Source of the DNA: Eledone cirrhosa
Taxonomy: Eukaryota
DNA length: 64,000 nt
Reading direction: 5' to 3'
Assembly: GCA_964016885.1 (NCBI GenBank)
Contig: CAXHJY010000522.1
Span: 1-64,000, forward strand
A model generated the notes under the pieces. That model did not search any database and was not told the DNA's origin. It saw nothing but the letters and a program-made list of their open reading frames with translations. The position numbers and the translations under genes are program-made. Numbering within the stretch: position 1 is the first letter of the stretch; each line of letters begins with the position of its first letter. This document shows positions 34,434 through 61,049 of this stretch, piece after piece.

Positions 34434-34569
34434 TCCTTTGTCAGTGTTGAATAAACGAGCAACGATGGTTGCTAGACACTACGGCTTAATACGGGATGTT
34501 TGTTTACAAACACACCGACCATTATAATAAATGTTCGGTGAATCCATACGTACATATATATATGTGTGC

Positions 34570-34612
<43 letters not shown>

Positions 34613-34717
34613 CTACTGTACGTCTGTATACATATATGTATGTACGTGTACATACTTATATTTAAGTAACAGCCTTACTAAGATCGAGAAATGAAATTTC
34701 GTTTCATTTTTTCCGTT

Positions 34718-34799
<82 letters not shown>

Positions 34800-34849: not shown

Positions 34850-35464
34850 TGTTGGTATGGTCACGTGATGCGCATGAAGGATGATAGCTGTATAACAAAG
34901 TGCAGGGCAATAAAGATAGACGGTAGCCACGGAATAGGCAGACCCAGAAAAACCTGGGACGAGCTGATAAACTCCGACCTCACACACTTACACCTCACCA
35001 AGACAATGTCACTGGACCGAGACCTTTGGCGGTACTCAGTAATAGAGAAGACCCGCCTTACCTAAATACAAAGTAAAACCTACTACAGTCAGTAGGCATC
35101 TCTAACAAAATACACCCCCGTCCCACCACCCCCACCCCATCCACACCACCCCCTTCTATGTAAAGTTATGTTGGTGCCACACCATCCAGGCCGAAACAAA
35201 TGAGATCGTGTAGGTGTCACGACAAAAAACACACAGTCCACGCTATAATGTGGCCGTGTAGGCAACACGGTAAAAACCTCCCAGACCCACACTGTAAATG
35301 TGGTTGGTGTTAGGAAGGGCATCCAACTGTAGAAAACCTGCCAGACAGTCCTATGCGAGCAAGACAATCACTCTTGCCTCAAGTGGGAATACCCCCGTCC
35401 AAACCCATGCAAGCGTGGAACATGGACGTTAAACGTTGATGATGATGATGATGATGATGATGAT
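34850..35464 (+). mobile_element. RTE family A 3' end
   Basis: WYGHV...KTRLT*, 3' UTR and (TGA)n. Confidence 0.93.
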
Positions 35465-58160: not shown

Positions 58161-58534
58161 CATTTATTAAATTCAACAGAAATATTAATATTGCAGATAA
58201 TAAAATAGAAAGACTTCAAAAAAACAAACAATGAATGTAACCTCTTGTAAAATATATATATATATATATATATGGAATAGAATGAAATGAAATTTCATTT
58301 CTCACTCTTAGTACGGCACTTACTTAAATGTAAGTATGTATACGTACATACATATATGTATACAGACGTACAGTAGTATGTATATATATACATACATGCA
58401 CACATATATATATGCACGTATCGGTTTACCAAACATTTATTATAATGCTCTGTTTGTAAACAAACAAACAGCCGAATTACGCCATACAGTGTTTAGGCAA
58501 CCACGTCACCTTTTTGTTCAACGCTGACACAGGA

Positions 58535-58577
58535 ACGATGTACTAGTTTCAAGCTTATTAGCTATCATCAGCATCGT
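58535..58577 (-). ncRNA. Minimal type I hammerhead ribozyme
   Basis: ACGATG-CTGATGA-TAGCTAATAAGCTT-GAAA-CTAG-TA-CATCGT on the minus strand. Confidence 0.88.
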
Positions 58578-58880
58578 ATACCTTCCTGTCAGATGGCTGA
58601 ACGTCTGAAAGTATATACTTTCCTTATGCATATTAACGGCTGAGCAGCCTAATTTGCATATTGAGTGAGTTCAGTTGGCCGGGCACACCGAAAACGATAA
58701 ATGGAATAGAATGTAGTATGTATATATATACATACATGCACACATATATATATGCACGTATCGGTTTACCGGTTTACCGAACATTTATTATAATGCTTGG
58801 TTTGTTTGTTTGTAAACAAACAAACAGCCCGAATTACGCCGTACAGTGTTCAGACGTTCAACCATCTGGCAGGAAGATAT

Positions 58881-58923
58881 ACGATGCTGATGATAGCTAA
58901 TAAGCTTGAAACTAGTACATCGT
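58881..58923 (+). ncRNA. Minimal type I hammerhead ribozyme
   Basis: Same motif as 58535-58577, on the plus strand. Confidence 0.88.
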
Positions 58924-59121
58924 TCCTGTGTCAGTGTTGAACAAAAAGGTGACGTGATTGCCTAAACACTGTACGGCGTAATTCGGGCTGTTTGTTTACA
59001 AACAAACAAACCGAGCATTATAATAAATGTTCGGTAAACCGATACGTGCATATATATATGTGCGCATGTATGCATATATATACATACTACTGTACGTCTG
59101 TATACATATATGTATGTACGT

Positions 59122-59170
<49 letters not shown>

Positions 59171-59172
<2 letters not shown>

Positions 59173-59510
59173 GCCTTGCTATGAATTATAGAAGTGAATT
59201 TCACCACTGGTCTTTATAACCTAGGGAGAGCACTGTAACAGCTGTTTCTGGTTCATTAACCATCTTCAGTGGGGATAACTCCACTTGGGTGCTAAGACGA
59301 AAATCAGCTAAAAGTTTATAGTACTTATGCTTATGAACATCAAGAGATGAACCTCATTTGCATACAGGGCAAAAGCTGGCAGGCTCTAATTAGTGAGAGG
59401 TAGTGATGCTCTGGCATAGCATGTTTGATACATGATTGAGGATGTATACTGAATCATTTGCTAAAGACCAGTGGTGAAATTCACCAATGCTAAAATTCAT
59501 AGCAAAGCTA
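59171..59510. mobile_element. MITE with ~46-bp imperfect TIRs
   Basis: TAGCCTTGCTATGAATT..GTGAATTTCACCACTGGTCTTTA versus TAAAGACCAGTGGTGAAATTCAC..AATTCATAGCAAAGCTA, with TA flanks. Confidence 0.75.
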
Positions 59511-61049
59511 TAAAAATGTTTATTTACATGAACATTTCATATACGATTCAATATACAACCCCAGTCAAGTACCAATCATGCAATGTCAGAGAATCACCAC
59601 CTCTCATCGCACACATGCACATATATACATATATATATATATATATATACATTATAGAGGTAATCAATACTGCATAAATAGGTGTATAAATTTACATAAA
59701 TTTATTCAAGGTATTTATCTTTTTTTCTTCAATTGACAAGGAAAAAACGTATATTTAGCATATTACATGTCTATTTACAAAAAATGTGTAAATTTATATA
59801 TAGATTTACACAGTCTTTGTTAGCTCTATTCTTTGTGTATACAGATATAACGGTATAAAATCTTTGGTCTAGATTCAAAATTTTAGCTGTTAACATAACT
59901 AATATTTTAATATCTGTACATCAAAGTAAATATACATTGAAAATATTGAAGTTTGCAAGGGGAAAAACCATATAACCTCAGTTTCAGACAACAGATTAAG
60001 TTAAGGAAAATATGGTTTATGCATTTAGGTGTATAATATAGAAATGTTCGTTTGGTATACAGCAGGATATTAGTTTATGATTTGGAATCTGTGTGAAAAG
60101 TAGGTTAGCAGGATAAAGCGTTAACATAATTCTATGTTATTCTTTAACATTTTGTATACAAACTACCTGAACCGGACTCTGGTTCTATGATACAAAACTA
60201 TTTTAAAGTGTCTATCATTATCATTATTTAATATTAAGTAATGTTCAAACATCAGCTTAATCCTTTCGTTACTTCATTTCTAATAAAATGCACCTGCTTA
60301 TATGTTTCAAAAAGTTTGGAAAATAATAAAATATTTGGAGGAATTTAATAAAACAACCAGTTGTTTCATTAATAAGCCGATATTTCGAACAATACTTTAA
60401 AAATTCTTTGATTATAATTTTATTTAAGTATAAAGTTTTGTATCATAAATCCAAACTGGTTTCTATTAGGCAGTCTGATATCAAAATGACTAATAATGGG
60501 AAAGTCAGTTATATTTACTAAACATATCTAAATTCTTGATTATTTTCAAAATGATTTGAAAACTAGAGGCTGATTCTTTCATTATAAATATGGTAATGAA
60601 AGATTACTCTACCAATGCTGTTTCAAGTACTCAGGTCCTAGCTCTACAAACTATTGAACAGAAATATTACAAACTAGCAGGTATTTATCTAAAAGGACAA
60701 CTTGTAAATTATATTGGTTGCTATGGAAATATAGTTAATTACTAGATTAGCAACATTAGAAGAGTGATTACCAAACAGCTTATACTGAGGGTTTTTTCTT
60801 TCAGATTAAGTAGAATAGTTTTAAAACGTTAATAGTAAGCAAAACCACACAAAACACACATTCAGATAAACTTAGATACACACATACATTCACACAAACA
60901 AATACATACATGTGCACATATTAACACAAATAAACAAATCTATACAGTCACACACATGCAAATACACATACACAGAGAGCCAGAGCTGGTCACATTTTTA
61001 TGGGACATAGGAATGGAATTTAGTAAAGATAAATATTCATAGTTGGTAA

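Follow-up and report, generated by a model that had tools for sequence, protein, structure and literature searches.

A retrozyme copy with diverging arms in a TA repeat of Eledone cirrhosa, likely inserted by a Penelope-like enzyme

Anatomy of the insertion and its hammerhead motifs

The window, i.e. the whole 64,000-nt stretch of Eledone cirrhosa DNA analysed here, carries at 58272-59129 a copy of an animal (metazoan) non-LTR retrozyme, an element of known kind (Table 1). The first-pass annotation had described two arms that diverge from a TT overlap at 58849-58850 and lie between (TA)n flanks. Both points hold, the TT being the sole overlap between the minus arm, which runs from 58850 to 58272, and the plus arm. 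The span given earlier, 58272..59135, is right at its start and wrong at its end, since 59135 lies 6 nt inside the TA-rich flank and the true end is 59129. A target site duplication (TSD) is unreadable within the (TA)n. No stop-to-stop frame of at least 90 aa overlaps 58272-59135, and the insertion is therefore non-coding. A MITE-like element with terminal inverted repeats of ~50 nt (one indel) occupies 59173-59512 and adjoins the right TA flank directly. The best named homologues of a protein encoded in the neighbourhood come from Argonauta, as would suit a cephalopod host.

Table 1. Features of the retrozyme insertion at 58272-59129, its sister insertions and the neighbouring Penelope-like elements (PLEs).
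Feature	Position	Strand	Remarks
Left (AT)n flank	58252..58271		target microsatellite
Left arm, main part	58272..58712	-	one whole 428-nt unit + 13 nt; 3′ end = long site
One-sided tail, 62 nt	58272..58333	-	present in left arm, absent from right arm; equivalent end 34272 in 34 X1 contigs
Perfect 18-nt palindrome	58284..58301		predicted stem-loop, just within long end site
Type I hammerhead motif	58516..58602	-	extended helix I; core start 58571; predicted GUA cleavage site 58541
Octamer ATGCAAAT	58652..58659	-	upstream of ribozyme; also at 27819, 34309
Left arm, 5′ partial unit	58713..58850	-	138 nt; ~90-nt jump to main part at 58712/58713
Inversion junction	58849..58850		TT, 2-nt microhomology
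Right arm	58849..59129	+	5′-truncated unit, terminates at short end site
Type I hammerhead motif	58856..58942	+	helix I 58881-58886/58918-58923; core from 58887; predicted cleavage after 58917
TA-rich right flank	59130..59172
Sister insertion, subfamily A	27419..28146	+	inverted arm of 21 nt (27419-27439; end = long site), followed by 1.7 tandem units of period 418
Sister insertion, subfamily A	33956..34720	+	1.8 tandem units (period 430), no inversion; long-site end, then (TA)n
PLE 1	13628..24466		830-codon frame without interruption at 17708-20200 (-); inverted arm, diverging, at 20713-24466
PLE 2	28592..32127		5′-truncated 622-codon frame 29020-30888 (+); inverted arm 28592-29051; (TA)n flanks

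The minus arm does not simply mirror the plus arm, since its partial unit is followed by the jump and then by the main part. An alignment of the two arms shows 14 differences in 282 positions, of which four reflect an alignment slip in a GTTT repeat, one lies in the flank and nine are transitions; several indels also separate them. Inverted repeats and long (TA)n tracts are difficult to assemble, and the inverted structure might accordingly be an artefact of assembly or of library fold-back. This is scarcely credible, given that the arms are asymmetric and diverged to this degree and that the architecture is repeated at the 27-kb copy. A fold-back copy of one read in particular was rejected, because the nine transitions and the indels over ~280 nt are incompatible with it. 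The jump at 58712/58713 comes after a full turn plus 13 nt and lands in a TA-rich tract; a template switch or a later deletion might have produced it.

Each arm carries a type I hammerhead motif with the full conserved core and the NUH site that characterise this class. A 6-bp helix I, prolonged by a long interrupted stem, is followed by CUGAUGA, a U·U and then a 4-bp helix II, and GAAA; helix III is the palindrome ACUAGU and the cleavage site is GUA. Helix I reads ACGATG/CATCGT in both arms and ACGTTG/CAGCGT at 27475 and 27893, so that, as first annotated, U·G is replaced by A-U through changes on both sides. The statement that the conserved core differs at N7 alone (CTGATGA versus CTGACGA) is likewise correct, and the 27-kb copies differ also in loop II (AACA versus AATA). 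A type I hammerhead descriptor run over both strands of the 64 kb gave six matches, five in the retrozyme family and one in a PLE end, which is more than expected by chance. A looser pattern caught a sixth copy of the retrozyme family, with a GUG site. The 99-nt ribozyme region has a predicted fold with z of about -2.6. Rfam gave no match at the gathering score, Hammerhead_HH9 being weak on both arms (21.1 and 20.3 bits versus 52); microRNA matches at the E-value level were rejected, as they arise from AT tracts. The exact ribozyme pattern was found in none of the metagenome contigs and in none of the viral contigs.

Since helix III is a minimal palindrome, the source RNAs likely self-cleave as dimers, for which the dimer helix is predicted at -4.8 kcal/mol. 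In the axolotl, ribozymes whose helix III is minimal and palindromic, or which have a U·U at helix II, are described as cleaving poorly alone and well as dimers (PMC7229834). The present hammerhead unites a single-pair helix III and palindromic tetraloop, as in Amex1, with a U·U at the base of helix II, as in Amex2, features that are separate in the axolotl ribozymes as presented there.

Sister retrozymes and Penelope-like neighbours

Six ribozyme copies lie in three insertions of the window. The two sister insertions belong to subfamily A and 58272-59129 to subfamily B, A and B being ~83% alike. The unit periods are 418, 430 and 428, the GC content is 37-39%, and there is one hammerhead per unit. 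The unit circles are predicted to be 66-67% paired with z-scores of -6.2 to -6.6 (40 shuffles), values inflated by self-complementary AT tracts, and the ribozyme is predicted to fold freely within them. The tandem units of the 27-kb insertion end at the short site, contain two intact ribozymes of the same sense and are enclosed by an 11-bp TSD (27408-27418 and 28147-28157). In the 34-kb insertion the cleavage site of the second ribozyme is GUG. Metazoan non-LTR retrozymes have been characterised by a non-coding tandem unit of ~150-450 bp with a GC content below 50%, a hammerhead, a self-paired circle and, when present, a TSD longer than 4 bp, as well as by self-cleaving RNA that accumulates in linear and circular form (PMC7229834). 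The copies described here share with them the non-coding tandem unit of 418-430 nt, one type I hammerhead, a predicted self-paired circle and, at the 27-kb copy, a TSD longer than 4 bp.

The octamer ATGCAAAT is present in all three units that contain the corresponding part, 80-90 nt upstream of the core; it occurs 12 times in the window and is without variant among the read variants listed. We take it to resemble the snRNA-type promoter of newt satellite 2. It is possibly a promoter element, or just one strand of a hairpin. A 350-nt segment at 33602-33955, between (TA)n and the 5′-truncated retrozyme, has no homologue in the window and gave no match when compared with the retrozyme unit; it may be captured sequence or target.

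Which of the three insertions could have been a source? By the criterion of Li et al. (2026), an active copy is recognised by two consecutive units of the same sense with a complete ribozyme; the 27-kb copy has them, whereas the 58272-59129 copy has one ribozyme per strand. Moreover, a read-through RNA of the latter is predicted to fold back and bury the ribozyme, the predicted pair probability falling from 0.71 to 0 for helix I and from 0.95 to 0 for helix II. On these two grounds the 58272-59129 copy has likely reached a dead end and might at most give rise to long double-stranded RNA; as a source copy, the 27-kb dimer is the stronger candidate.

Two PLEs lie in the same window. PLE 1 has (TA)n flanks, a one-sided tail of 134 nt and a 3.7-kb inverted arm; its arms are ~99.5% alike, and it is therefore young. 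A hammerhead-like motif with a helix II of ~120 nt has its core at 13960 on the minus strand. PLE 2 has a tail of ~95 nt containing a type I hammerhead (core 32034), and as its inverted arm stops exactly ahead of the hammerhead core, the ribozyme lies wholly within the tail. Hydra elements are reported to insert into (TA)n and to be diagnosed by RWK, DKT, CxCX5C, CxxC and CxH (PMC8557442). The proteins of the two elements, P0001 and P0002, have DKT, the CxCX5C linker, CxxC, CxH and, at the C terminus, GIY-YIG, together with the (TA)n target; P0001 has RWR where the family consensus is RWK, and P0002 is without the N-terminal part. Pfam and NCBIfam returned nothing for P0001 and P0002 themselves, and the profile matches to PLEs are weak (retron RT, E = 0.0065; GIY-YIG in 2 of 39 members). 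From these motifs and weak profile matches the two neighbours are probably Hydra-clade PLEs, and PLE 1 is a candidate source of the integrating enzyme.

Similarity between the retrozyme units and the ends of both window PLEs stayed within that of 100 shuffles. In this respect the elements differ from known retrozymes: no pLTR homology, by which a non-autonomous PLE derivative is recognised, was found to either of the two window PLEs.

End sites, tail and the likely route of integration

A diverging inverted arm is present in two of the three retrozyme insertions and in both PLE insertions of the window, with an extra tail at one end only. Mapped in the RNA sense onto the 34-kb unit, the five 3′ ends of the retrozymes fall into a long group (34267, 34268 and 34272) and a short group (34207 and 34214). 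In both inverted retrozyme insertions the inverted arm has the long end and the other arm the short end, and the uninverted insertion has the long end. The three long ends lie within 6 nt of each other, for which the probability by chance is 0.0005 with uniform ends or 0.002 if only AT/TA ends are allowed; the two short ends lie within 8 nt. These figures rest on three retrozyme insertions (n = 3). The resulting tail measures 53-65 nt (62 nt at the 58272 copy and 53 nt at the 27-kb copy). No retrozyme end coincides with the cleavage site, all being 210-275 nt from the predicted one.

The long end is found in public data as well. In run X1, 7,981 contigs align to 34205-34555, and the first loose end listed is 34272, where 34 contigs continue as (AT)n. 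No RNA run was among those listed by a search of sequencing runs. Read ends in RAD data pile up at AATT sites, and neither contig nor RAD depth is a measure of copy number. X1 and X21 together show seven strand-changing joints at scattered positions among the 15 listed of 28, which may be ligation chimeras of the RAD libraries. Runs X5 and X7 carry other organism labels and contribute only 18 and 9 contigs, and they were not used for host range.

An inverted 5′-truncated copy, a partial tandem and a tail at one end are hallmarks of PLEs (Craig et al. 2021, PMC8557442). A purified Poseidon protein (PAc) is reported to cleave AT-rich DNA on both strands and to extend them (Frangieh et al. 2024, PMC11167929), with two internal start sites that define the tail and without the need for ribozyme cleavage (PMC11167929). 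The present insertions resemble Hydra-clade PLEs and Poseidon in all of this: the partial tandem, the inverted 5′-truncated copy abutting the 5′ end, the tail at one end, the (TA)n target and ends unrelated to the ribozyme cut. The idea of a PLE-style inversion during integration, already raised in the earlier annotation, is thus well supported: the one-sided tail is fixed, a second insertion is inverted and has an 11-bp TSD, and the window contains two PLEs built in the same way. From these observations we infer an RNA intermediate, its cleavage and circularisation, and the kind of enzyme: the copy was likely pasted into the TA repeat by a PLE reverse transcriptase with a GIY-YIG endonuclease, probably one of the Hydra clade.

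Several features do not favour a PLE. Different from PLEs, the retrozyme has no ORF and does not match the adjacent PLE ends, and its tail of 53-65 nt exceeds the published 30-40 bp, the tails of the two neighbours being longer still (~95 and 134 nt). The (TA)n target does not discriminate, since copies of an RTE-type LINE in the window also lie within (TA)n, and the short site falls in a TA-rich tract to which any twin priming could anneal. Could such a LINE have integrated the retrozyme RNA, the inversion arising by ordinary twin priming on multimeric RNA? RTE copies are the commonest element of the window, the short end could anneal to the second target strand, and twin priming gives the diverging geometry. 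However, the retrozyme ends are without the (ATG)n/(CAT)n tail of the window's RTE copies (e.g. 35437-35464), the same stretch of the unit is represented in both retrozyme arms, the one-sided tail, fixed in position, is like that of the PLE neighbours, and in an informal look through the repeat listing of the window no RTE copy was seen to abut a diverging arm. We therefore regard integration by an RTE-type LINE as unlikely. Two 2060-nt RTE copies, at 4044-6103 and 9071-11130, share 99.95% identity and are both enclosed by very long (TA)n tracts; they reflect either duplication in the very recent past or a repeat in the assembly.

A second alternative dispenses with the RNA step: the satellite would have spread as DNA, and the inversion would have arisen after insertion, by DNA-level rearrangement or by template switching in a hairpin-rich and AT-rich tandem repeat. 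The 2-nt microhomology, the 90-nt internal jump and the palindrome-rich unit are in keeping with this. Yet an 11-bp TSD frames the inverted 27-kb insertion, and the same two outer end sites recur across independent loci and in the X1 contigs, which makes a post-insertion origin very unlikely, more so than the LINE.

For integration by a PLE enzyme, we propose the following course. Tandem source copies would be transcribed, and the RNAs would self-cleave as dimers to yield RNA circles or multimers. The enzyme would introduce nicks into each strand of the (TA)n, and reverse transcription would begin at two internal sites ~60 nt apart. The first cDNA would start at the long site, run through one full turn plus 13 nt, jump and continue for 138 nt more, while the second would start at the short site and break off 38 nt upstream of the ribozyme core. 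Finally, the 5′ ends of both cDNAs would be joined at the TT. Only tentatively do we add that a recently active Hydra-clade enzyme may recognise the RNA circle by its structure, starting at the stem-loop near the long end, which would leave a PLE fingerprint without any sequence shared with the adjacent PLE ends.

PLEs were proposed as the mobilisers of retrozymes by Cervera and de la Pena (2020, PMC7229834), and Li, Clavereau and Pollet (2026, 10.64898/2026.07.22.740005) argue for them on the basis of co-occurrence and of homology to the pLTR. Arguments about the mobilising enzyme of animal retrozymes have so far relied on co-occurrence and similarity to pLTRs, and the signatures of end sites and tails add independent evidence. 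Inverted arms and a tail set the present copies apart from known retrozymes, as far as the main texts of PMC7229834 and 10.64898/2026.07.22.740005 describe these. A literature search returned no inverted, tailed retrozyme insertion and no cephalopod retrozyme, though subscription journals, Repbase entries or supplements may contain one; 235 hammerhead matches have been noted in a squid genome (PMC6962438). Publications already cover the element class, the inversion of PLEs and compensatory changes in the hammerheads of satellites, and the gain here is incremental. The window does offer a candidate template together with a young, apparently intact PLE frame. If recognition is indeed based on structure, the 830-aa frame 17708-20200 and the 27-kb dimer are at hand as partners with which the mobiliser of animal retrozymes could be shown in vitro for the first time.

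Constraint on the ribozyme across subfamilies

The structure-keeping changes in the ribozyme had also been read as selection on its function across subfamilies, and for this our evidence is suggestive and divided. Such selection would in any case have acted in source lineages and not in the 58272-59129 copy. Subfamilies A and B show fixed differences at 26 of 295 aligned positions, and the ribozyme changes at the background rate, with 3 of 43 positions against 23 of 252 outside it (Fisher P = 1). None of the 11 core positions has changed (P = 0.36, the core being too short for the test), nor any of the 25 positions of the core plus helices II and III (P = 0.09). What support there is lies in where the changes fall, all three being tolerated ones. 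Three random changes in the ribozyme would all be tolerated with P = 0.047 (~0.05), and with P = 0.007 if the two-sided pair change is included, the double change in helix I being a single event between two lineages. Covariation in the six-copy alignment is not significant, since 36 of 500 shuffles reach its score and 303 of 500 reach the number of two-sided pairs.

Public reads add a third form of the same helix I pair, G·U. In the plus-mate reads of X21, 83% have G at 34394 and 91% have T at 34430, and two X7 contigs combine G at 34394 with T at 34430, as judged from matching depths. X1 counts against the pairing reading, with T at 34430 in 45% of the depth versus G at 34394 in 13%; given this mismatch, and with the T>A row outside the listing, up to a third of the X1 depth may be A-U or unpaired U·U. 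Variants were recorded at 38 places in the best-supported 40 of 89 variant rows, nine of which were dropped because the reference copy is the outlier. The remaining 29 include none in the 25 sites of the core and helices II and III (P = 0.085). A test on 39 sites gave P = 0.02; it is post hoc, as it excludes the covarying pair and uses a GG/CC register picked after viewing the reads.

Compensatory changes in hammerhead satellites of cave crickets have been reported with far more data (PMC2837043). The Dolichopoda satellite pDo500 resembles the present family in its hammerhead, C/T variation at N7, stem I changes that compensate each other and the dimer form proposed for it, its repeat being ~500 nt as described there (PMC2837043). 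Constraint on pDo500 was significant on 198 sequences (PMC2837043), whereas the six copies and read tallies available here remain suggestive. Pairing is kept between A and B also in a hairpin 3′ of the ribozyme. Since structure-keeping changes thus occur outside the ribozyme too, any constraint likely acts on the fold of the whole unit.

The reads also reveal further variation. In X21, 9,918 reads match over the ribozyme part and pass into B-like sequence at 34455. Reads at 34383-34438 represent a third subfamily, related to B, in which the upper helix I pair of 34384 with 34438 changes from A-U to U·G and 34385 from A to G, the GG/CC register still being paired.
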